Shown: positions 8,375-34,924 of the stretch, one piece after another | Position numbering within the stretch: position 1 is the stretch's first letter | Layout of the letters: every line of letters starts with the position of its first letter | Assembly: GCA_012799695.1 (NCBI GenBank) | Contig: JAAZKT010000001.1 | Location: forward strand, 17,658-81,657 | Reading direction: 5' to 3' | Length of the DNA: 64,000 bases | Source: Clostridiaceae bacterium | GTDB taxonomy: Bacteria > Bacillota > Clostridia > Saccharofermentanales > DTU023 | Position numbers and translations under genes: made by a program | The notes under the pieces: model-generated | What the model was told of the DNA's origin: nothing | The model's database searches: none | Seen by the model: only the letters and a program-made list of their open reading frames with translations

Positions 8375-9526
8375 CTACTCAACAAGGACACGCGGCACGC
8401 GTTCTTTGATCCCCGTGAAAACCTCGTAGTCAATCGTGCCGTAGACCGCCGCCACTTCGCTTGCATCTTTTCGACCATATGCATCTTCACCGAACAGCAT
8501 CACCTCATCGCGCACTTGAGCATCGGGTATGGCAGTGATATCTACTATGCATCGATCCATACAAACGCGACCGACGATGGGAACTTCTCTTCCCTTATGA
8601 TAGAAACAACCCTTGTTCGACAGCTGTCTGGACAATCCGTCCGCATACCCCATATTAATGACGGCGAGTCGCGAGTCATTCGGTGCCGTCCATGTGCCCC
8701 CGTAACTCACACGCGTGCCCGCAACAACTTCGCCGATTTGTTCGATAACGCTCTTTACCGTCATGACAGGGCGCAAATTCGTCCAGTGAGGAGTTCTCTC
8801 ACCGGCTTTGCCTCCGTACAGCGTGATCCCGGGACGCACCATGTCAAAGTGATTCTCCGGTTGTTCCGGAATCGCAGCACTGCTTGCGATATGGCGCTTG
8901 ACTCGCGGGAAACCGCGTCTTTCAGCTTCTGCAACAGTTGCGATAAATCGCTCCCGTTGTATCGCGGCATAGGTTAGATCGCAATCTGCCGTCGCCAAGT
9001 GCGTGTACACACCTGCCACCTTTAGCGCGGGTTCTCCGGCAGCGGCGAGCAACGCTTCAATCGCTTTGGAATTATTAGGAGGATCGATGAGCATGCCCAG
9101 TCGTGACATACCGGAATCAAGCTTGATGTGTACGGTTAACGGTTCCCCGCCGGTCTTTGCCGATGCATCGGCAAAGCCTTGTATTTCGCTTACGGAAACG
9201 ATCGAGGCCGTCAAATCGTACTGTTTGAGAAATGGTACGTGCTCGTATCTCGTCGTACCGAAGATAAGAATCTCCGATTTCGCGCCCGATTCACGCAAAG
9301 CGATCGCCTCATCGATCGTGGCGACACAGAGATATGTTACTCCCGCCTCCTCGAGAACGGGAACGATAAGCTCGGCACCGTGACCGTACGCATTTGCTTT
9401 TACTACGGGAGCGACAAGCGTTCCGGTCGTGGCGGTATACGCTTTGATCACTTCCAAATTATTGATTAAAGCACTCTTTGAGATCTCCGCCCAAGACTTT
9501 TTCGTGAACCAAGGATTTATCTTCAT
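8375..9526 (-). CDS. alr: Alanine racemase
   Basis: PLP-lysine motif VVKANAYGHG. The C-terminal catalytic Tyr region reads RVSYGGTWTA. At 383 aa it lies 38 nt downstream of orr on the same strand. Confidence 0.9.
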   Translation of the reverse strand: MKINPWFTKKSWAEISKSALINNLEVIKAYTATTGTLVAPVVKANAYGHGAELIVPVLEEAGVTYLCVATIDEAIALRESGAKSEILIFGTTRYEHVPFLKQYDLTASIVSVSEIQGFADASAKTGGEPLTVHIKLDSGMSRLGMLIDPPNNSKAIEALLAAAGEPALKVAGVYTHLATADCDLTYAAIQRERFIATVAEAERRGFPRVKRHIASSAAIPEQPENHFDMVRPGITLYGGKAGERTPHWTNLRPVMTVKSVIEQIGEVVAGTRVSYGGTWTAPNDSRLAVINMGYADGLSRQLSNKGCFYHKGREVPIVGRVCMDRCIVDITAIPDAQVRDEVMLFGEDAYGRKDASEVAAVYGTIDYEVFTGIKERVPRVLVE

Positions 9527-9564
9527 TTATTGCCCATCCATCTAACGTCTATAGTCAAGATTTT

Positions 9565-10626
9565 TTAGACGAGTCGTTTCTCTACGTAAGGAGAGGTTGA
9601 AGCGCGCAATAAAGCCGCGTAATCAGGCGAAAACTCGAGCACGTCTCCAACCTTGAAGTCGCGGACGGCATGCGTAATATCAAGCATCATGTAATCGCTT
9701 GACGCACCTAGGAATGCAATCGTGCTATCTTTAGGCTCCAACGTATCGCAACGCACATCCTGCTCACCGATGGCGAGAATCGCGCGCCAAATCTGTCCGC
9801 GATCTTCGAAAACAGGAATCTCGTTGAAAGAATTCGGTCCGATTAAACCCGTCGGAACGGATGGTTTACGTCTCAGCTCGACAATCTCCGCCCTGACAGT
9901 AAAGACATCAGTAAAGAGATCGTGAAGTCGCTTTCGGAATGATGTCTCAATACCGAGCAGGTAACCCTCGCCGACGCGAAGATGCGTGATTCCCAACGGG
10001 AGTCTGTTTTCAGAAAGCATGTAGAGGGAACCCGTGTTGCCTCCGGAAACAATCGGTAGCGGAACATTGAACCGGCGCCGAATATCTTCAGCCATCGCGC
10101 TTAGCTCCTCCAGCTGGCGCTCTTCGGGAATGACACCCCCGTAGCAGTTAAAATTCGCCCCGATACCCGCCAACCATACGCCACGCAGATTAAGTACACG
10201 AGAAGCGACATCAAACATCTCATCCGGCATGAACCCCTCGCGCAAATCTCCCATCTCAACCATTAAAATGACACCGTGCTCACGGTCGAGCGCCAGCGCC
10301 GCATCCGACAACGCCTCAATGGCGGATAAGTCGGAATTAAGACTTAAATCGGAATAGCGCACAACGTCATTCGCATTCGAGATCATCGGCACCCGGAGCA
10401 TCATACGCGACAGTCCGAGGTCACTCATCTCACGTAAATTCTCGACGCGGGAATCGGCAAAATACTCAACACCCGCCTCATGCAAGACTTCGAGAAAAGG
10501 TCGCCATCCTGACAAACATTTGGTGACAAAGTGTATTTGAACGTTTGAATCCTGCCCCATCTTCAAGATAGTACGCACATTGTGAATAAGTTTCTCGCGA
10601 TCAATTAGCAATTCAGGATATGACAT
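9565..10626 (-). CDS. orr: Ornithine racemase (alanine-racemase-fold PLP enzyme)
   Basis: A 353-aa protein with an Ala_racemase_N-type barrel (HFVTKCLSG around the PLP-Lys). The call rests on its position at the end of the ord/ort/ora cluster, as in the described Clostridium sticklandii ornithine cluster. Confidence 0.7.
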   Translation of the reverse strand: MSYPELLIDREKLIHNVRTILKMGQDSNVQIHFVTKCLSGWRPFLEVLHEAGVEYFADSRVENLREMSDLGLSRMMLRVPMISNANDVVRYSDLSLNSDLSAIEALSDAALALDREHGVILMVEMGDLREGFMPDEMFDVASRVLNLRGVWLAGIGANFNCYGGVIPEERQLEELSAMAEDIRRRFNVPLPIVSGGNTGSLYMLSENRLPLGITHLRVGEGYLLGIETSFRKRLHDLFTDVFTVRAEIVELRRKPSVPTGLIGPNSFNEIPVFEDRGQIWRAILAIGEQDVRCDTLEPKDSTIAFLGASSDYMMLDITHAVRDFKVGDVLEFSPDYAALLRASTSPYVEKRLV

Positions 10627-10638
10627 AATGACCTCCTG

Positions 10639-11994
10639 TCAGGACAATTTCAATGACGAAAGCATCAATTTAACGGCCGCCTCAGGGTAGGCGTTAGCCA
10701 TGACGCCACATGCAGCCATCAAATAGTTGTGATCTATCATAACACGCGCAAACTCCGACGGATAGAGATAATCGGTCACAGGCACCGACAATACTTCGCC
10801 GATCATTGATCCGGCACAGGTCAACTTTGTCAATGCGCCGCCTGTCGCGATGACCGACGTAACGGCAGTCAAATCGCGACCTCGTATCGTCATCCGTCTT
10901 CCTCGTGTCGTAAATTGTTCCGTCATGCGACCGGCGTGGCGTTCCAGTGCCTCGCGACAACAAGTTCTCACAAGTGGAAGCACGAGTGAAATCTGGTCTC
11001 TATTCTCAGGTATCTCCGGCACGTTCGCAAGCTGTAATTCGTAATCAGCAGGTAGCCTCGCCCTCTCACCGGCATTCATCGCGCCGATGACGTGTGAACG
11101 ATTGACGAACACGCCCAAGTCGCCTTCAACTGTCCGCTTGGCGAACGGCTCCGGTTCTATGCGATAGTGGCGCAAGTCTTCACTGCCTTCCGTTACCGAG
11201 TGAAGATCGGTTGTCGCTCCTCCGACATCAAAAGTCATCAAATCGCCGAGTACGTCGAAGAGCCGCTCCGTCATCGCCATCACGGCGCCCGGTGTCGGCA
11301 TAATCTTTCCCGTCACCGCTTCGTGTATGCGCGCCATCCCGGGAGCCTCGATGATGTGTTCTTCAAAGATGTCCTGAATCATCGCGCGCGCAGGATCAAC
11401 ATCGAGTTGATCAAGCGACGGATAAACATTCTTCGTTATGTACAATCGGATGTTTTTCTCCTGAGCGATCGCTTTGATCTCTCGCCAATTATCGGTGTTC
11501 CCGGCGTACAAGACCGGCGTCCCCGGCATATGCTCTGTCAGAACCTTGAAGTTGTGAAGTGCCGTCTCGCGCTCGCCGCCGTCAACGCCGCCCGCCACCA
11601 TCATGATACGCGGAGCGATGGCGCGCACTTCTTCAAGATCATAAGTGCCGAGCCTTCCGGCGGTAACCATGCGAATTACTGCGCCTGAACCGAGTGCCGC
11701 CTCGCGAGCGGCGCGCACCGTCATCTCGGGAACTAACCCGTGAACGGTCATTGAGAGACCGCCCGCCGCGGAACTTGTCGCGAAGATATGGTCGGATTCG
11801 ATCATCTCGACGCCGAGATTACGGGCGAGATCGATTCTTGCCCTTTGAAGGCCAAGGACGACGTCTCCCTCCCCGCTGGATGTCGCCGCCATCCCCTGCC
11901 CGAGAAAGACGGGAGCGTCACCGGTCAAGTCGGTAAACGCATTGACGACTGTCGTCGTGCTTCCAATTTCCGCTACGAGCAACTCAACGTTCAT
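10639..11994 (-). CDS. GlmL/MutL-like protein (putative aminomutase reactivase)
   Basis: A 451-aa protein with the ASKHA-type start LLVAEIGSTTTVVNAF and the motif DVGGATTDLHSV. It resembles the glutamate mutase L component and overlaps the end of oraE by 11 nt. Confidence 0.65.
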   Translation of the reverse strand: MNVELLVAEIGSTTTVVNAFTDLTGDAPVFLGQGMAATSSGEGDVVLGLQRARIDLARNLGVEMIESDHIFATSSAAGGLSMTVHGLVPEMTVRAAREAALGSGAVIRMVTAGRLGTYDLEEVRAIAPRIMMVAGGVDGGERETALHNFKVLTEHMPGTPVLYAGNTDNWREIKAIAQEKNIRLYITKNVYPSLDQLDVDPARAMIQDIFEEHIIEAPGMARIHEAVTGKIMPTPGAVMAMTERLFDVLGDLMTFDVGGATTDLHSVTEGSEDLRHYRIEPEPFAKRTVEGDLGVFVNRSHVIGAMNAGERARLPADYELQLANVPEIPENRDQISLVLPLVRTCCREALERHAGRMTEQFTTRGRRMTIRGRDLTAVTSVIATGGALTKLTCAGSMIGEVLSVPVTDYLYPSEFARVMIDHNYLMAACGVMANAYPEAAVKLMLSSLKLS

Positions 11995-26558: not shown

Positions 26559-26574
26559 ATGTACATATGTACAT
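26559..26574. promoter_or_regulatory. Perfect 16-bp palindrome ATGTACATATGTACAT upstream of the SorC-type regulator gene
   Basis: It lies 16-31 nt upstream of the sorC-like ATG (26543) and contains TACAtaTGTA. It is a candidate operator. Confidence 0.4.
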
Positions 26575-26611
26575 TACAATTGTTTCATTAAGTTGATTTT
26601 ATTTGAAACTA

Positions 26612-27208
26612 TTAGTGTCTGTCAATGGATTTTGACGCACATATGTGCACGTTTCTGTATTTATATGAGTTGTTCTTGTCTTCCGATTCAAATACTGAAA
26701 ATTGCGGATAACAATGCGCATAAAAACGGGCAACGCTTTCGTCACTGCCCGAATATTTCACCATCCACAGTCTCATGCAATGGTTATAGATGCTATCCGG
26801 TGAGTAGCAGTAACTGAACATGTGTGCCCAACAACCCTCGGTCATAACATTAGGATTGTCGGAAAGAAGATAATGCAAAGATAAATTAGAGCTTTCAGGA
26901 TCCGGTTTGTATGAGCTTTTCACCAGATATCGGTAATTCCTCGAAAACAAGTACTCATCTCCACCTTTTGAGTCATAGAATTGCAGCAGAAATGTCGAGC
27001 CGTCGTAGCTCAGTTCATTGACAGTAGAGTCGCCCCCTTGATCGGCATACATCTGGTAGATTCGCACTTTAGCCTCGCACCCCATGGCAGTACTGTTTTC
27101 AAAATCCGCCCATGCCCTTTCTCCTGCCAAGAGAGTCTCTACGTCCAGAACCACACAGCCGTCCGCCATCGCCTCTTCCGCAGAATAGTTCTTGCGCGTA
27201 TCCGCCAA
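26612..27208 (-). CDS. Stand-alone, truncated paralog of the BlaR1-like extracellular sensor domain (function unknown)
   Basis: A 198-aa ORF (TTG start at 27208 with AAGGAG 10 nt upstream, or ATG 39 nt further in). Residues 1 to about 147 align almost colinearly with residues about 352-498 of the BlaR1-like protein (for example KNYSAEEA.ADGCVV, AWADFENSTA, ELSYDGSTFLLQFYDSKG, PDPESSNLSLHYLLSD). The tail is unrelated, and there is no signal peptide or TM segment. Confidence 0.5.
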   Translation of the reverse strand: MADTRKNYSAEEAMADGCVVLDVETLLAGERAWADFENSTAMGCEAKVRIYQMYADQGGDSTVNELSYDGSTFLLQFYDSKGGDEYLFSRNYRYLVKSSYKPDPESSNLSLHYLLSDNPNVMTEGCWAHMFSYCYSPDSIYNHCMRLWMVKYSGSDESVARFYAHCYPQFSVFESEDKNNSYKYRNVHICASKSIDRH

Positions 27209-27222
27209 ACGCGCTTCACTCC
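26771..27222. repeat. Copy A of an approximately 450-bp dispersed duplication (partner at 31861..32321)
   Basis: Aligned base by base by eye, identity is about 85-90 percent, with a 2-nt indel at one end and a roughly 9-nt indel at the other. Both copies have the same orientation. Confidence 0.9.
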
Positions 27223-27257
27223 TTCTTTCACCCTAAGCCGACATAGACTCTTCAACT

Positions 27258-27287
27258 ACTCTAACGCGTTAGAAAAATGTCATTCTA
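27258..27287 (-). promoter_or_regulatory. Putative promoter -10 plus BlaI-type operator in front of the stand-alone sensor-domain gene
   Basis: The reverse strand reads TAGAAT (27287..27282), 6 nt, then TTTCTAACGCGTTAGAGT (27275..27258). The core TCTAACGCGTTAGA (27260..27273) is a perfect palindrome. The layout matches the blaI-like promoter. Confidence 0.5.
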
Positions 27288-27442
27288 GGCCATTGGACTG
27301 AATTTTTAAGAGGGAAATGGACTGAATTTGGCGTGAACGAAATAATATGCAGGATTTCATGCTACAATCTAACCAAGCTATTTTCATTTGAGTTTATCTG
27401 AGTTGATTTTTGATTGGCAAATACTCCAAAAGAGGAAAGACC

Positions 27443-28342
27443 ATGGTAAAAAACAACTCGTCACCCGCAATAGACAATCTAACGCTGAACGGAATCCCCG
27501 TAAGTATCCGCTACGACTATCTCTTTAAAAAGATATTCGCATCGGAAGACAGCAAAAGCGCTGTCGCGCATCTCATCCACCTGACGACAGGCCTTCGCAA
27601 GGAAGATGTGAGCGATTTGACAATCTCGAACCCTTATCTGCTGTTCCACAACATAAGGGATAAGCGCAGCATCGTCGACATCCTCATCAGGTTGAAGGAT
27701 GGCAAAAGAATCAATATTGAGATGCAAAACCACTGGCATCCGTTCTATCCCGAGCGAGCCATCTATTATTGGTCGCTCATGTATCAGGATACGTCGCGCG
27801 CAAGAGAGGGCTATAATAAGCTTAGCAAGTGCATCGGCATCCACTTGCTTAACGAAGCCTTCCATTTAGGCGAAAAACTACAATCGACGTATGCGATACG
27901 CGAAGAAAACGGTTCACTTTTATCGGACGTCTTGGAATTACACTTCTTTGATCTGACGAAGTTGCCGGAAGAAACAAAAGAACTGTTGCAAAGTGAAATC
28001 AGTGAATTGGAGCGTTGGTTGCTGTTCATACGAACAGACAGTCAGGAAGTGCGTAACGTGCTATCGGAAGGAGACGAACTCATGAGTGAATGCAATGACA
28101 AAGTGCAATCTGTTTTCTATACCCCGAGCGAGCGGGAAATTTACATCCGCGAACACATCGCCGAGATGGATCACTACTCGATCATGCGGGAAAAGTATGA
28201 GAGCGGCCTTAAAGAGGGCCTGCAGAAAGGCAAAGAAGAAGCCAAGCTAAACATCGCCAGAGCCTTGCTAAAAAGCGGAATCGACAAAGATATCATTCAA
28301 CAGACAACTGGGTTGGATCGGGAACAACTTGAAAACTTGTAA
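27443..28342 (+). CDS. Rpn-family PD-(D/E)XK recombination-promoting nuclease / putative transposase
   Basis: From ORF 27410..28342, with the ATG at 27443 and GAGGAA upstream. It shows the family start IRYDYLFKKIF, the nuclease core SIVDILIRLKDGKRINIEMQ and the typical C-terminal helical tail (KEEAKLNIARALLKSGIDKDIIQQTTGL). Confidence 0.8.
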   Translation: MVKNNSSPAIDNLTLNGIPVSIRYDYLFKKIFASEDSKSAVAHLIHLTTGLRKEDVSDLTISNPYLLFHNIRDKRSIVDILIRLKDGKRINIEMQNHWHPFYPERAIYYWSLMYQDTSRAREGYNKLSKCIGIHLLNEAFHLGEKLQSTYAIREENGSLLSDVLELHFFDLTKLPEETKELLQSEISELERWLLFIRTDSQEVRNVLSEGDELMSECNDKVQSVFYTPSEREIYIREHIAEMDHYSIMREKYESGLKEGLQKGKEEAKLNIARALLKSGIDKDIIQQTTGLDREQLENL

Positions 28343-28505: not shown

Positions 28506-29162
28506 TTATGCCCCAAGTTTCAAGTCTGGAATGACAATAACTTTATCGGCGATCTCCTTCAATGAATTGTCGTGCGTCGCGATGACGATGGACTTCCCGC
28601 TCTTTTGCAGTTTTCTGAGAAGTCCGATGACGATCTCCTTGTTGCCTTCGTCGAGGCTGCCGGTCGGCTCATCGCAAAGGATCATTTCGCACGGTTTCAA
28701 GAGCAGCCTCGCGATCGCGATCCGTTGCTGCTCACCGCCCGAGCATTCAAAGATGCGTTTTTCAAGGAAGTTTTCTTCAAGTCCCACCTCCGCCAACGCA
28801 ACTCTTTTGAATGTCTGCTTATCCGCACGAGAAGCCTTGATCATCTCAAGAGCGATATCCAAATTCTGTTCCACGGTCATGTGGTTAATGAGAGCGAAGT
28901 CCTGAAAAAGGTAGCCGATCTTCTGTGCCAGTATCTTCTCCGCCTGGTGCGAGAAGGGCTTCACATTCTTCTTGCCCCACCAGACGATCTCACCGCGATC
29001 GGGCGTCTCGATCAGGCCGAGAATATTGAGCAACGTCGATTTGCCGGAACCGGATACACCCGAAAGGACGACCATTTCTCCCGCCCGGATAGAATCTGTC
29101 ATGTTGCGCAGTACGGGTATTCTGCCGAATGATTTATGTAGCCCGCGCCATTCGATTTGCAT
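28506..29162 (-). CDS. ABC transporter ATP-binding protein (lactococcin-972-group/FtsE-MacB-like)
   Basis: Walker A GVSGSGKST, Q-loop, signature CSGGEQQR, Walker B ILCDEPTGSLD and H-loop IATHD. Its ATG overlaps the permease stop (TAATG). Confidence 0.9.
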   Translation of the reverse strand: MQIEWRGLHKSFGRIPVLRNMTDSIRAGEMVVLSGVSGSGKSTLLNILGLIETPDRGEIVWWGKKNVKPFSHQAEKILAQKIGYLFQDFALINHMTVEQNLDIALEMIKASRADKQTFKRVALAEVGLEENFLEKRIFECSGGEQQRIAIARLLLKPCEMILCDEPTGSLDEGNKEIVIGLLRKLQKSGKSIVIATHDNSLKEIADKVIVIPDLKLGA

Positions 29163-31375
29163 TATTTTTCCCCCTTTAGCATCGTTGCCATGCGTTTTTG
29201 AATGCGCCGTGTGAAGAGTATGTGGATGAGCACATCAAGCCCAAGCAGTCCTGTAAAAAGCGCCAGCGAGGTGTTAAACGCCAACTTAACTTCCATGAAA
29301 TCAAAAGTGTATCCCTCATAACTAAGGTTCATGATCTGCCTGAAAAAATCCGGGAACAATGTAACGGCAAGTAAAGCGGTTACGTATGGAATCAGCACGC
29401 GCAGCCACAAGAAACGGTAACGGCGCAAGAATGGTGTTCCGTGAAGATATGCTAAGTTGAGCCACTTGTTCTTGTCCAGAAAGTATACTGCCGCGTTCTG
29501 GTAGCTTAAGAATGCAAAGCTGACGAGCAAATACGCCATGATGACCGCGGGGCGGCGCACTGCTTGCAAGTTAAGTTCTTTTGTCTGTATCATCGGTTCG
29601 GAGCAAAGCTCGTACCAGTCGGGAGAATATCCTCCCGCATCCATGACCTTGCGGATACTCTCCCTGTTTTCCACCGTATCCGGAACGTAATTCGCGTAAG
29701 CCTTCGCATGAGCGGACGACACGAGGATAAGGATGGAGTCGTACGCCACCTCACCGGTCGGGAGGAGAATCTTCTGATTCCGCTTGATCGGGATCGTCTT
29801 TTTCCCTCTTGTCAGTTCATCCAACATAAATGTACTGGCGTCTTCAAGCTTAGCGCCTTCCGGAACGAGGAGAACGGTCGTTTCTGGAGGAGCATCGAAT
29901 TGAATCTGTTCGCCGTCCGCATCAAGGATTTTGTTCATGAGAGTCACTTGGTATGAAATTTGCGCACAGCCAAGTTGGACTTCTGTCGTCATCAGTTCGC
30001 CTTTTTCGTCGATGCCCTTAATCTCGATGGCGCCACGCGCTATATAGTTTGATGTGAGGGCTCCCCACTCATGCTGATGCTTTTTGAAGTAGTTTTTTAT
30101 CTCACTGCTCTTTGACATACGTTTTGCTTCGTCTTCAAAGGGAAGTGTCGCGTCCTCCACATGGAACGCAATTTGATTGCGCGCGTATCGCCGCTCGGCG
30201 CGAGAAGCATTGTATAGACTATTCAGTGGTGGAAAAAGGTCGAAGAGCTGGGCAGCGATGAGGAGCACAAGAATAATTTTCAGAACGAGACTGATGTTGG
30301 AAAAGAGGGTAAGTGAACTTGTCTTTTTCGTCGAGATAACGGGGCGGACGCGCTTAATATAAATGACGGCGATGCCGAAGGACAACGCTATCATAAGCAG
30401 AACAGCCGCGATAAAGAGGAGAAGCAGTTTCAGAAACTCGAGGAAAAGCGCATTCCAGTACGTAACCGTCACGAGCAATGTAGCGAGTGTCGTCACGAGA
30501 AGAGTGAGCGCCATCCATCCGTTGAACGGCAGGAACAGCTTAAACGCAATCGCGCTCGTCGATTGGCCGAGCATCTTGCGAATACCGATCTCCTTTGACA
30601 TTTCTACGACATCCAATGAATAGCTGGCGACGATAATGGCGAACAGTGCGGCAGCGAAAAGATAAATAATCGTATAAGCGGGTCCCGTTTCACTTTCTGC
30701 AAAGAGCTGCATGGTTTCGTTGAATTCGTCATAAGGATGGATTCCGCCAAAATACGGATATTCATTCTGCTCATACAGTCGGAGAAGGCGCAACGCCTCC
30801 TGTCGCCGCTCAGTCACCAGATGACCTCGAATGGAAGGAAAGTCGCTCTCAGGGCGGCCGGCGAATCGCTCACGCGCCATACTCATCGGACTATAGAGCT
30901 GTTTGACCTTCTCTCCGTCGAGTTCTGAGGCTGACAAATCCGTCATTCTCAGAATAGTTCCCTGCTCGTCTTCCGGCGGCCATACGTATGCTCGGGTGGC
31001 TGTCCGGCTCCAATCACAGGCTGGATCGCTGTAAAAAAATGGAGGGAGCAACTCCTTCTCATTGGAATGGATATACGTCTGCCCGTAAATCGTCTCGTCC
31101 TCAAGTATCGTTGTAACTTGAAGCACAAGATCGCCTTCGACCGCCTCCGTGATTTCCATCAAGTCGTCAAACAACTTCAGCGGCGTCTCCGTATCATAAT
31201 AATTGATCCAAAGACTGACGGTCTTTTCCGGGGCGAAGCCGGGCATCTCTTTGATTAAGGCTTCGGGGCTAAACTTCTTATGGTGATTTTCTTCGAACAT
31301 GATGCGGCCTTGTGACACACAGAGGATCGTCAACAGAACGAGGAAGAAAAGAAGAAATAATCGTCTCTTAAGCAT
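29162..31375 (-). CDS. ABC transporter permease, FtsX-like/DUF1430-type (bacteriocin-associated integral membrane protein family)
   Basis: A 737-aa protein with an N-terminal TM segment, a large extracytoplasmic domain, a TM cluster carrying the FtsX-type motif GIRKMLGQS, a second extracytoplasmic domain and a C-terminal TM cluster. The family assignment is made by architecture and needs an HMM check. Confidence 0.7.
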   Translation of the reverse strand: MLKRRLFLLFFLVLLTILCVSQGRIMFEENHHKKFSPEALIKEMPGFAPEKTVSLWINYYDTETPLKLFDDLMEITEAVEGDLVLQVTTILEDETIYGQTYIHSNEKELLPPFFYSDPACDWSRTATRAYVWPPEDEQGTILRMTDLSASELDGEKVKQLYSPMSMARERFAGRPESDFPSIRGHLVTERRQEALRLLRLYEQNEYPYFGGIHPYDEFNETMQLFAESETGPAYTIIYLFAAALFAIIVASYSLDVVEMSKEIGIRKMLGQSTSAIAFKLFLPFNGWMALTLLVTTLATLLVTVTYWNALFLEFLKLLLLFIAAVLLMIALSFGIAVIYIKRVRPVISTKKTSSLTLFSNISLVLKIILVLLIAAQLFDLFPPLNSLYNASRAERRYARNQIAFHVEDATLPFEDEAKRMSKSSEIKNYFKKHQHEWGALTSNYIARGAIEIKGIDEKGELMTTEVQLGCAQISYQVTLMNKILDADGEQIQFDAPPETTVLLVPEGAKLEDASTFMLDELTRGKKTIPIKRNQKILLPTGEVAYDSILILVSSAHAKAYANYVPDTVENRESIRKVMDAGGYSPDWYELCSEPMIQTKELNLQAVRRPAVIMAYLLVSFAFLSYQNAAVYFLDKNKWLNLAYLHGTPFLRRYRFLWLRVLIPYVTALLAVTLFPDFFRQIMNLSYEGYTFDFMEVKLAFNTSLALFTGLLGLDVLIHILFTRRIQKRMATMLKGEK

Positions 31376-31483: not shown

Positions 31484-33349
31484 CTATTTCATTCCGGTAG
31501 GAAATGTCTCCCCGTTCTCATCAAGCAGAACGAGTGTTCCGTCCCGAATGACAATGTCAAAAAGCTCTCCGACGATAGACGGATACTCCGCCACGCCCCA
31601 GTTTTTCATCTGCACTTTCAGCGTGCCGTCTTCTTCTTGGAAAAAGCTGATGACGCCGCGGTTTGGGGCTGGAGAGAAAAGTCCGGCATACTCGAACTGA
31701 TCGCCTTCAAAAACAGTCAAAGTGAAGGTAGCGACACCGGAGGTTGGCCCATAGCCGAGGCAACATTTTTCCTCTATCCCGTCGTTGTCGATGTCGACAA
31801 AAGCGAGTCCAAATCCACGTTGAAGAAGGTATCCGTTGTCAATGAGCCGGCTAAACAATCTCTCGCATTGGTTATAGATGCTATCCGGCGAGTAGTACGA
31901 ACTAAACATGTGTGCCAAATAACCCTCGGCAGTCACATTAGGATCGTCGGAAAGAAGATAATGCAAAGATAAATTTGAGCTTTCAGGATCCGGTTGGAAT
32001 AAGCTTTTCACCAGATATTTGTAATTCCTCGAATACAAGTATTCATCTACACCTTTTGAGTCATAGAATTGCAGCAGAAATGTCGAGCCGTCGTAGCTCA
32101 GTTCTTTGACAGTATAGACGCCCCTTTGATAAGCATACATCTGGTAGATTCTCACTTTCGCCTCGCGCCCCGCGGCAGTGCTGTTTTCAAAATCCGCCCA
32201 TGCCTTCTCGCCTGCAAGCATCGTCTCCCCGTCCATCACCACACAGCCGTCCGCCTCCGCTTCTTCCGCGGAATAATTCTTGCGTATATCCGCCAACGCC
32301 GGCCACGATTCCTTCACCTCCGCTTCGGTACGTTTTGACACATCTGTCTCAGTGGATTTAGGCACCTCCGTTTCAGTGGGTTTCGACACATCAATGTCCG
32401 TTTTAGGAGGATAGGTCAGAAAACATACGGCTAAAATAACACCTGCCGCGACGACTGCCAAAATAACCCAGAAAGTCGGCTTCTTATAATTCAACACACG
32501 CTTCACTCGTTCTTTCACCCCGATTTCGCCAAAAGCGAGAGGGCACGCGGCGATCCGACCGTGAGAAATGCTGCAGGTGAGCAGCGACTGAGAATAATCG
32601 GCTCTCTGTTCTCGGTTCAATCCTTTGATAACTCTTTCGTCGCAGGCAAGCTCGACATCGCGGCAAAACAAGACGTACGCGATCCACATGACCGGATTAA
32701 ACCAGTGAAGTGAAAGCAACAGATAACCAAATGGTTTAATCCAATGGTCTTTTCGTGCGATGTGTGCTCGTTCATGAGCGAGCACATAATCTACATCCGA
32801 CTCCGACAAAGAAAACGGAAGATAAATCTGCGGTCGTATTAGACCGAGCACAAAGGGAGACGCGATCCTTTCGCTTTTCCATACACCCAGTTCTAACCGA
32901 ACCGCCGTCTTTACCTCGCGTTTCAGGCGCAAATAGCTGATCAGGGCGTAAAGCAGCATCACCGCAACGCCCACCACCCAGATAACGAAGGCAATGGATA
33001 CGCTAGTTCGCACAGGATGGCTACCGGTGACGGGATCGGGCGCCAAGGACTCTTTAAGAATGGGATTGACGACACGATTAACGTAAGCAATACCGCTATG
33101 GATCGCCGGCTCTTCCGCCACCAAAATCTCGGGGCCGACGATCTCGCCGCTCGGAATCAGACTCAGCGGACTTTCAATGGAAAAGGGGAAGAGCAACCGC
33201 AACGCGACCAGTCCCCACAAAAAGGGAAATACGCGCTTCGGCACTTTTCGAAAAATTACTCGAATCAGTATAACCGCAAGTGCGAGATACGATGCGGTCA
33301 CTCCCAGATTGACCATATTCAGGAATAACTCATTCATGCTTCGTCTCAC
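31484..33349 (-). CDS. BlaR1/MecR1-family M56 sensor metalloprotease with a non-PBP extracellular C-terminal domain
   Basis: M56 Zn motif HERAHIARKDHW (HEXXH at 32762..32776) within an N-terminal 4-TM region, then a TM segment at about residues 292-312. An extracellular region of about 300 aa follows, with no SxxK/KTG penicillin-binding motifs. The likely start is ATG 33337 (MNELFLN), overlapping the blaI stop (ATGAATGA). Confidence 0.85.
   Translation of the reverse strand: MRRSMNELFLNMVNLGVTASYLALAVILIRVIFRKVPKRVFPFLWGLVALRLLFPFSIESPLSLIPSGEIVGPEILVAEEPAIHSGIAYVNRVVNPILKESLAPDPVTGSHPVRTSVSIAFVIWVVGVAVMLLYALISYLRLKREVKTAVRLELGVWKSERIASPFVLGLIRPQIYLPFSLSESDVDYVLAHERAHIARKDHWIKPFGYLLLSLHWFNPVMWIAYVLFCRDVELACDERVIKGLNREQRADYSQSLLTCSISHGRIAACPLAFGEIGVKERVKRVLNYKKPTFWVILAVVAAGVILAVCFLTYPPKTDIDVSKPTETEVPKSTETDVSKRTEAEVKESWPALADIRKNYSAEEAEADGCVVMDGETMLAGEKAWADFENSTAAGREAKVRIYQMYAYQRGVYTVKELSYDGSTFLLQFYDSKGVDEYLYSRNYKYLVKSLFQPDPESSNLSLHYLLSDDPNVTAEGYLAHMFSSYYSPDSIYNQCERLFSRLIDNGYLLQRGFGLAFVDIDNDGIEEKCCLGYGPTSGVATFTLTVFEGDQFEYAGLFSPAPNRGVISFFQEEDGTLKVQMKNWGVAEYPSIVGELFDIVIRDGTLVLLDENGETFPTGMK
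31861..32321. repeat. Copy B of the approximately 450-bp duplication (partner at 26771..27222)
   Basis: See copy A. This copy lies inside the BlaR1-like gene and encodes residues about 343-497. Confidence 0.9.
32306..32401 (-). repeat. Four imperfect 24-bp (8-aa) tandem repeats encoding the acidic juxtamembrane linker of the BlaR1-like protein
   Basis: The protein reads TDIDVSKP / TETEVPKS / TETDVSKR / TEAEVKES, directly after the TM segment. Confidence 0.85.
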
Positions 33350-33716
33350 TTCTGTACTGGTCGATCATCTTCTGCACCTCGTCGATTTCGTCTTCTGAAA
33401 TCTTCTGGTGCTTCGTGAAGGCTGCAATAAAGGCCGGCAGGGAGCCCTCAAACTTCTTCTCCACCAACTCGCTGATCTCCGCCGCCTGCACTTCCTCCCG
33501 TGAAATGAGGGACGTTACGATCGTATCTTCGTTCTGTACGACGCCGCGATCCGAAAGTCGCCTGATAACGGTGTACGTCGTCGTGGGCTTCCAGCCCAAC
33601 TCTTCCTCGCACAGTTGAACAAGCTCCGAGCTTTTAATTGGCTCATGCTCCCACAGAATCAGACAAAATCGATATTCGCTCTCAAAGACTTTTGGCGTTT
33701 CCATCATTCCCTCCAT
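33330..33716 (-). CDS. BlaI/MecI/CopY-family transcriptional repressor
   Basis: A 128-aa winged-helix protein (ESEYRFCLILWEHEPIKSSELVQLCEEELGWKPTTTYTVIRRLSDRGVV) with a C-terminal dimerisation helix. It overlaps the sensor protease gene. Confidence 0.9.
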   Translation of the reverse strand: MEGMMETPKVFESEYRFCLILWEHEPIKSSELVQLCEEELGWKPTTTYTVIRRLSDRGVVQNEDTIVTSLISREEVQAAEISELVEKKFEGSLPAFIAAFTKHQKISEDEIDEVQKMIDQYRSETKHE

Positions 33717-33740: not shown

Positions 33741-33793
33741 ACTCTAATGCATTAGAGTTTATTTCATTCTAACCGATTAGAGCGAAATGTCAA
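33741..33793 (-). promoter_or_regulatory. blaI-like promoter with two TCTAA-N4-TTAGA dyads (putative operators)
   Basis: The reverse strand reads TTGACA (33793..33788), 16 nt, then TAGAAT (33771..33766). Dyad 1, TCTAACCGATTAGA (33768..33781), overlaps the -10. Dyad 2 is the perfect 18-bp palindrome ACTCTAATGCATTAGAGT (33741..33758), 24 nt before the ATG. Confidence 0.55.
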
Positions 33794-33952: not shown

Positions 33953-34924
33953 ATGAGCCATAACGTCAAAAAGTATGTCTACGGAAAACCTGCACTTGAT
34001 TATTGGCGAGTGCCGTCAATCCGAGGCAACATCGAGCCGGTCGACATGATCTTTCCTGACGAGTACGTTATCTTCACCGATAAGCCCATTTACCGTCCTG
34101 ATCGCGCCATCATACACACGTGCAGTATCCCCGGTGCCAATAAATACGTCAAAGGACGAGCGTGCACACTCCCGCTCGTATTTCTTCAAGTCGCCCTGGA
34201 GTACAGCATCCTCGAATTGATTTTTCTAGGACTCCAAATCTGTTCCTACCGCGAAGGCGATCAGCCTCGATGCACCGTCGAAGAACTGCGTGCCTGCGCC
34301 GAAGAACTGCGAGGACATCGAGGGCGAAGAAAAGCACTCCGAGCTATTCGCTATCTAGACAACAACTCACGGTCTCCGATGGAATCAATTCTTTACATGT
34401 TTCTGCGTTTGCCCAATGCGCTAGGAGGGTGCGGCTTTAGCGAAATCGTGCTCAATGAAAAGATTGTTTTGGAAGGGGGCAAAACGTACTTTGCAGACCT
34501 CTACGTCCCTTCTTGTAAACTTGATATCGAATACGACAGTGAAGAATTTCACAGCAGCGCCTCGGCATTATCAAAAGATCGGGAGCGTACCGCTCATCTA
34601 GAAGCAGAAGGCTATCACGTCGTTTCAGTGAACTACGCAAAATTGAACAACCTCAAAGCCTTTCAAAGCTTAGCGCGCCAACTCTCCCATCTGATACGAA
34701 AACGCATTCACATTCGCGCAAGAAAGTATTTTGAGAACTTCGTCGCCTTGCGCGATCTGCTGTTCAAGAAAGGACTTAGTCTTCGCTCACGTTTCCGCAA
34801 AATCCACTGTCGAGAAGTACCCCAGTTCGCCGGAGTACGCATCATGTATAGAATCTACCTTGCTGCCTGGAACAGACTCATCCGGCACCCCAACCTCCCC
34901 TTGGTATTAACGCGAGCACCTTAA
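33953..34924 (+). CDS. DUF559/Vsr-like endonuclease-domain protein (hypothetical)
   Basis: A 323-aa protein. The C-terminal half carries the pattern YFADLYVPSCKLDIEYDSEEFHSS...RTAHLEAEGYHVVSV, which is typical of DUF559-type restriction-endonuclease-like domains. No clear RBS is present, so the start is uncertain. Confidence 0.5.
   Translation: MSHNVKKYVYGKPALDYWRVPSIRGNIEPVDMIFPDEYVIFTDKPIYRPDRAIIHTCSIPGANKYVKGRACTLPLVFLQVALEYSILELIFLGLQICSYREGDQPRCTVEELRACAEELRGHRGRRKALRAIRYLDNNSRSPMESILYMFLRLPNALGGCGFSEIVLNEKIVLEGGKTYFADLYVPSCKLDIEYDSEEFHSSASALSKDRERTAHLEAEGYHVVSVNYAKLNNLKAFQSLARQLSHLIRKRIHIRARKYFENFVALRDLLFKKGLSLRSRFRKIHCREVPQFAGVRIMYRIYLAAWNRLIRHPNLPLVLTRAP

Follow-up and report, generated by a model that had tools for sequence, protein, structure and literature searches.

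The palindromic dyad at positions 27258-27275 (minus strand) is very probably the surviving OP2 operator of a second blaI-blaR1 operon, now mostly deleted, whose place was immediately upstream of the SorC/PTS operon; it marks a decaying remnant of that lost operon. The open reading frame (ORF) that follows the dyad (26612-27208, minus strand, 198 aa) is, judging from the sequence comparisons below, an accidental reading frame that runs across a promoter stub, a short island, domain A of blaR1 and former intergenic pieces. Such a relic operator before a gene fragment in decay is an ordinary finding. Here, 'the window' denotes the whole stretch of 64,000 nucleotides that was analyzed; loci outside it carry L numbers and proteins carry P numbers.

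The elements from which the analysis starts are the following.

27258..27275, minus strand: surviving operator (copy of OP2), TTTCTAACGCGTTAGAGT, located by pattern search and by homology to OP2 of the blaI promoter
27282..27287, minus strand: -10 hexamer TAGAAT of the relic promoter, read from the sequence

On the minus strand, the hexamer TAGAAT (27287-27282) is followed by 6 nt (GACATT) and then by TTTCTAACGCGTTAGAGT (27275-27258), whose core TCTAACGCGTTAGA (27273-27260) is a perfect 14-bp palindrome. An AAGGAG at 27224-27219 follows, separated by a 10-nt spacer from the TTG start codon at 27208. This succession of TAGAAT, 6 nt, palindromic dyad and AAGGAG before the ORF had been described in the earlier note as the same arrangement as that at the blaI-like promoter, and the description is confirmed in the sequence. 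A search of the 64-kb window for the core pattern TCTAA-N4-TTAGA (TCTAANNNNTTAGA) returns three exact matches where 0.05 are expected, and none of 100 shuffled sequences reached three. Two of the sites lie at the blaI promoter and one before the ORF, and no further site appears in the 64-kb window when one mismatch is allowed. By these sequence criteria, the identification of the dyad as the same kind of element as the dyad at the blaI-like promoter is supported.

The intact operon that provides this comparison lies 4.3 kb from the remnant and is paralogous to it. Its relevant features are as follows.

33741..33758, minus strand: parent-type OP2, ACTCTAATGCATTAGAGT, at the intact blaI-like promoter (sequence, promoter comparison)
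33766..33782, minus strand: parent-type OP1, CTCTAATCGGTTAGAAT, overlapping the -10 and invariant in the window, L002, L004 and L005 (sequence, promoter comparison)
33330..33716, minus strand: BlaI-like repressor gene, the sole copy in the window (PF03965, E=2.1e-22; MecI structure 1sd6, E=4.9e-8)
31484..33349, minus strand: intact gene for a BlaR1-like M56 sensor-protease, overlapping the blaI stop codon (PF05569, E=1.5e-50; HERAH zinc motif)

The blaI-like promoter reads TTGACA (33793-33788), 16 nt, TAGAAT (33771-33766), 7 nt and ACTCTAATGCATTAGAGT (33758-33741) on the minus strand. It carries a second dyad, OP1 (33782-33766), which lies between the -35 and the -10 and is absent from the earlier note. 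The dyad operators thus overlap the repressor's own promoter (33741-33782), which is the sequence arrangement of autoregulation in BlaI/MecI systems. The BlaR1-like protein has a transmembrane helix at about residues 290-315 and an extracytoplasmic sensor region of two modules, of which the first, domain A, follows the helix and a repetitive P/T/E-rich linker. Just downstream of blaR1 is a gene for a 737-aa multi-pass membrane protein (29162-31375, minus strand) with no Pfam match, whose stop codon overlaps the start of the ABC ATPase gene. Divergent to blaI is a gene for a 323-aa protein (33953-34924, plus strand) with weak DUF559/MTES_1575 endonuclease-like matches; blaI is partnered with a divergent gene of this type in L002, L004, L005 and L009-12 as well. 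In L002 (9010-10852), blaR1 is split into ORFs of 344 and 283 aa.

Comparison of four diverged functional blaI promoters (window, L002, L004 and L005) yields a footprint. The -35 has the form TTGA(C/T)(A/T), occurring as TTGACA, TTGACT or TTGATA. OP1 together with the -10 (ACTCTAATCGGTTAGAAT) is invariant in all four, and OP2 consists of half-sites CTC(T/G)AA...TTAGAG around a free 4-nt center (TGCA, CATA or CGCG). The sequence between and after the -35, OP1, -10 and OP2 diverges among the four promoters. The persistence of this pattern in four diverged promoters supports the view that the BlaI-like repressor has the dyads as its operator. The center of the dyad at 27258-27275 is CGCG, as in OP2 of L004 and L005.

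The similarity between the two loci extends well past the -10 and the dyad, a point that the earlier note does not make. Positions 27312-27246 align with 33796-33729 of the blaI promoter at 70% identity (blastn, MAFFT), and the dyad is therefore present by descent, since the relic promoter as a whole is paralogous to that of blaI. Downstream of it, the remnant is composed of three further pieces.

27209..27233, minus strand: 25-nt island from the end of the M56-domain part of blaR1, codons G-V-K-E-R-V-K-R (23/25, or 92%, identical to 32520-32496)
26767..27208, minus strand: what is left of the extracytoplasmic domain A of BlaR1, 147 codons (87% nucleotide and 81% amino acid identity to blaR1 32296-31855)
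26612..26766, minus strand: ORF tail, 51 codons, former blaR1-SorC intergenic DNA (26764-26530 is 79.6% identical to L005 10961-11195)

The island is in a reading frame different from that of the ORF and contains the AAGGAG (27219-27224). It also matches blaR1 in L002, L004 and L005, and in the remnants outside the window it is identical to L002 at 22 of 22 positions. Two other sources for 27233-27209 were considered and rejected on the strength of these matches to the GVKERVKR codons (23/25 in the window, 22/22 for the other remnants against L002): the region of the blaI Shine-Dalgarno sequence and start codon, with about 60% identity by eye, and the contiguous linker. Homology to blaR1 ends at 26767.

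The ancestral arrangement is visible in L005, a Clostridiaceae metagenome-assembled genome (MAG) in which an intact blaI (8587-8970) and blaR1 (8963-10798, 611 aa) stand directly upstream of SorC (11182) and the PTS operon. The remnant maps onto this locus in three collinear blocks, comprising the promoter (window 27319-27220 against L005 8498-8600), domain A (27208-26767 against 10001-10445, 80.5%) and the intergenic tail. Set against the intact operon, the collinear map makes three deletions visible. The first, of about 1.2 kb, removed blaI and most of the M56 domain; the second, of about 0.2 kb, removed the last transmembrane helix and the linker; and the third, of about 0.5 kb, took out sensor domain B along with the stop codon and some of the intergenic DNA. 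The locus therefore shows the marks of a pseudogene, namely collinear homology to a parent with internal deletions, a piece that is out of frame, a part derived from non-coding DNA and an intact gene at the orthologous position in L005.

In the earlier note, the dyad was taken to argue that the ORF is functional rather than a dead fragment. That argument is not supported, as the whole promoter is paralogous and the ORF is a triply deleted blaI-blaR1 with a formerly intergenic tail. The corresponding reading, in which the ORF is a functional gene for a stand-alone sensor domain, a member of a BlaI-type regulon whose de-repression accompanies that of the sensor/ABC operon, is unlikely given that promoter, island and tail all derive from the deleted operon. 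In its favor, the dyad stands upstream of every orthologous copy examined, and the remnant keeps nearly all of what appears to be a separable module; the observations described next bear on it further.

The promoter and start signals of the remnant have decayed relative to those of the functional promoters.

27304..27309, minus strand: degraded -35, TTAAAA (comparison with functional promoters)
27282..27298, minus strand: decayed copy of OP1, GTCCAATGGCCTAGAAT, with five mismatches to CTCTAATCGGTTAGAAT of the functional promoters, three of them in half-site positions
26727..26751, minus strand: terminator-like hairpin with a T-run after it, within the ORF tail and ahead of the stop codon (the 51 nt around the hairpin fold at -14.7 kcal/mol)
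26596..26625, minus strand: SorC/PTS promoter-like site TTGACA-18-TAAAAT (11/12), inside the ORF tail (motif scan)

All five OP1 mismatches fall at positions that are invariant in the functional promoters. What the relic promoter keeps is the -10 TAGAAT and an OP2 with perfect half-sites, and the loss of the -35 and OP1 speaks against a working gene. So does the terminator-like hairpin, which precedes the stop codon of the ORF. The AAGGAG in the window and in L013-15 would suit a translated gene; it is confined to these loci, and nine other remnant loci as well as the outgroup blaR1 genes read AAAGAG. It is thus a derived A-to-G change in a former Arg codon, and a Shine-Dalgarno sequence is missing from most lineages. 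A promoter with a decayed -35 and OP1, and an AAGGAG present in one haplotype group only, are not what the functional interpretation in the earlier note would lead one to expect. A search of 26300-27700 against Rfam gave no match above noise.

Many anaerobic-digester and MAG contigs carry the remnant in a conserved gene order, namely blaI, blaR1, permease, ABC ATPase, Rpn (in opposite orientation), remnant, SorC and PTS. The window protein is identical to P0018 (NMA35249.1, from a Clostridiaceae bacterium MAG). In 13 of 13 remnant loci, the window included, the OP2 core is the same, and the dyad is thus kept upstream of orthologous copies, the absence of which the earlier note had named as grounds for abandoning its proposal. 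This conservation is uninformative because the surrounding 230 bp of non-coding DNA are also about 96% identical across the remnant loci; the dyad is no more conserved than its non-coding flanks, which removes it as support for a working gene. The -10 reads TAGAGT in L001, L007 and L008.

The ORF itself is less uniform, and its protein occurs in at least 38 variants. The domain A core runs without interruption for 147 codons in P0010 and P0011, the commonest two haplotype groups (each present in more than 40 collection blocks), which favors a working gene, and one of the two groups has gained a good Shine-Dalgarno sequence. In L007 and L008 (proteins P0024 and P0026-28), a nonsense change from TAC to TAG at codon 133 removes the conserved segment SPDSIYN(H/Q)C. 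L003 and L006 have in common a +1 frameshift near codon 20 that runs into a TGA, and L006 carries a further -1 frameshift. The frame of the tail is altered by indels in L001, L007 and L008, and in L003 and L006 a stop codon comes straight after the core. The nonsense and frameshift alleles of these sister lineages weigh against a working gene.

Selection on the remnant was assessed with substitutions polarised by three outgroups (L002, L004 and L005). The remnant branch carries 2 synonymous and 13 nonsynonymous changes (omega about 1.7, from a small count of 15 changes), whereas the intact blaR1 branch carries 11 synonymous and 12 nonsynonymous changes (omega about 0.3), and the two sets of counts differ by Fisher's test (p=0.039). 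On the remnant branch, the counts are compatible with neutrality (P=0.38), and an omega of 0.3 is rejected (P=0.008); the blaR1 branch rejects neutrality (P=0.003). The remnant-branch omega therefore counts against a working gene, and remnant-specific changes that fit neutrality, together with the disrupted sister alleles, take away a further part of the case for function made in the earlier note. A pairwise dN/dS of about 0.3 is obtained both between remnants and against the intact blaR1. Between remnants, this value would favor a working gene, although it is confounded by gene conversion; the figure was not accepted as evidence of purifying selection, since it mixes in the constrained blaR1 branch and is subject to the same confounding.

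Gene conversion is indicated by the sequence of the L001-type remnant, in which a tract of at least 35 nt (L001 10040-10080 against window 32250-32215) is identical to the derived state of the intact blaR1, the apparent donor. Such conversion would explain a local hot spot of divergence, in that the window and L001 are 7% apart in the remnant core and 0-1.6% apart in the flanking genes. In a relative-rate test, the remnant is overall not faster than the intact domain, which fits a fast-evolving intact sensor domain and has no bearing on constraint.

Domain A of BlaR1 is extracytoplasmic by the established topology of BlaR1. Hydrophobic segments are absent from the 198-aa protein of the remnant (maximum KD19 of 0.89), so that the product, if made, would be in the wrong compartment; a signal peptide or transmembrane segment, which a working gene for an extracytoplasmic domain would need, is lacking. 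Neither the 198-aa ORF nor the BlaR1 sensor region matches a Pfam family. An AlphaFold2 model of the sensor region has a mean pLDDT of 62, with domain A acceptable and domain B poor; domain A is modeled with moderate confidence as an alpha/beta domain that extends to about residue 153. A Foldseek search of this model against the PDB gave no match with E<=0.001 (TM about 0.2). The remnant keeps residues 2-148 of domain A, and part of the last strand is therefore missing. Domain A seems to be a separable module, because a BlaR1 variant without it exists: in P0008 (453 aa), the linker is joined straight to domain B, an architecture that points to a modular sensor region. The product of the remnant is most likely non-functional.

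A second alternative assigns a job to the operator and none to the ORF, either silencing of the relic promoter against read-through into SorC/PTS or action as a decoy that buffers free BlaI. The remnant lies 70 bp upstream of the SorC gene and is co-directional with it, and the OP2 half-sites are fully kept while the -35 and OP1 decayed. With all 10 core positions retained against a background identity of about 70%, P is about 0.03, and for at least 11 of 12 positions it is about 0.085; both figures are post hoc and the retention is marginal. The dyad shows no excess of conservation over an intergenic region that is about 96% identical throughout its 230 bp, a terminator-like hairpin already stands between the relic promoter and SorC, and one extra site would make a weak decoy. 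Such a role is accordingly rated as decidedly improbable.

Control of the divergent Rpn-family gene by the dyad is exceedingly improbable. This gene (27443-28342, plus strand) encodes a PD-(D/E)XK 'recombination-promoting nuclease/transposase' (PF12784, E=2.6e-46) and lies at the junction of the ABC module and the remnant. The dyad does fall within the 234-bp intergenic region common to both genes, but the only plus-strand promoter-like site (27318-27346) is at least 45 bp beyond it on the Rpn side, with the dyad upstream of that site's -35, and the dyad owes its placement with respect to the minus-strand -10 to descent from the blaI promoter.

With the dyad read as the surviving OP2 of a deleted operon, the question of regulation can be separated from that of function. 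The BlaI-like repressor, the only one in the neighborhood, would still recognize the intact OP2, which covers the expected start of transcription, and would thereby hold down the residual weak transcription of a degraded promoter (-35 TTAAAA, OP1 lost), and this transcription would rise when BlaR1 inactivates BlaI. On the sequence, the repressor probably still binds the surviving dyad; by analogy, its binding at a relic with a single OP2 is probably weaker than at the parent promoter with two dyads. Since the dyad is the same kind of element as that at the blaI promoter and is present in all 13 copies, trans-repression by the lone BlaI-like protein is plausible. A precedent for trans-repression at a paralogous operator is the repression of mecA by the bla regulators (PMC3780952). 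The claim in the earlier note that the ORF belongs to the same BlaI-type regulon and is co-de-repressed therefore survives in part: co-regulation of the remnant with the blaI system is plausible from the sequence, and the dyad was inherited together with the paralogous promoter instead of being recruited. Any such co-regulation would be a consequence of ancestry and offers no argument that the ORF has a function.

There is a slender chance that the fragment has been re-used in the haplotype group of the window, where a strong Shine-Dalgarno sequence, created by point mutation ahead of the TTG start, and a relic promoter under BlaI control would drive an induced, cytoplasmic, stand-alone domain A that modulates the system. 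A domain A re-used in this way might act by binding the signal molecule or the BlaR1/BlaI proteins, and if this were true, the remnant would be a young gene born from a pseudogene.

Compared with the bla/mec systems of Staphylococcus aureus and Bacillus licheniformis, the intact module has the same kind of repressor, of the Penicillinase_R family (PF03965), with an M56 BlaR1-type sensor-protease, and the same autoregulated promoter with two dyad operators around the -10, as read here from sequence. The canonical BlaI/MecI/CopY half-site is TACA/TGTA, whereas the half-sites here are CTC(T/G)AA-N4-TTAGAG and do not conform to it. The sensor region likewise differs, in that it is not a penicillin-binding domain and has no Pfam or structural match, and the downstream genes encode an ABC transporter and not a beta-lactamase or PBP.

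A closer parallel to the operators is found in Clostridium thermocellum, where BlaI_0696 and BlaI_1845 recognize a non-TACA sequence, inverted GTCTAT repeats 5 nt apart (PMC8457756). These paralogues use two dyads per target promoter, bound by four protomers, are autoregulated and have very small regulons, sometimes with a distant gene (PMC8457756). The core TCTA is common to both systems, and the half-sites here are closer to GTCTAT than to TACA/TGTA, but the half-sites here are 4 nt apart instead of 5 and have other flanking bases. In the present case, the distant site is a predicted operator that keeps one of two dyads and fronts a gene remnant.

The remnant as such resembles the truncated mec regulators of SCCmec, in which a deletion remnant of a BlaR1-family gene likewise lies beside a retained operator/promoter region. 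Truncated mec regulator genes are known there from the delta-mecR1 class B and C complexes. What SCCmec loses is the sensor domain, usually via insertion of an IS element, and the membrane part stays; the remnant here has instead lost blaI and the protease/membrane part and retains some of the sensor region. The repressor gene mecI is deleted or mutated in most clinical MRSA (PMC3780952).

The comparison of the two promoters carries a caution, which is that a promoter/operator architecture common to two loci can reflect paralogy of the whole promoter rather than recruitment into a regulon, and says nothing on whether the downstream ORF works. Two modest results are an operator consensus for an uncharacterized clostridial BlaI/BlaR1-ABC module, obtained by phylogenetic footprinting and consisting of two CTC(T/G)AA-N4-TTAGAG dyads around the -10, along with a documented BlaR1 operon remnant that undergoes ongoing gene conversion from its intact paralogue.

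Two minor observations concern the flanks of the remnant. Palindromes of the TACAnnTGTA type flank the SorC/PTS promoter-like site at 26559-26574 and 26635-26652 (minus strand). One, ATGTACATATGTACAT, is a perfect 16-bp palindrome, its partner is ACGTGCACATATGTGCGT, and both are kept in L005 and L003; they more likely serve the SorC-type regulator (25578-26543) than a BlaI-type one. On the other side, the sequence otherwise found downstream of the ABC genes (28402-28263) comes directly after blaR1 in L002, which has no ABC genes there. Because of this arrangement and the position of the Rpn gene at the junction, the permease/ABC/Rpn block is suggested to be an insertion or deletion polymorphism.
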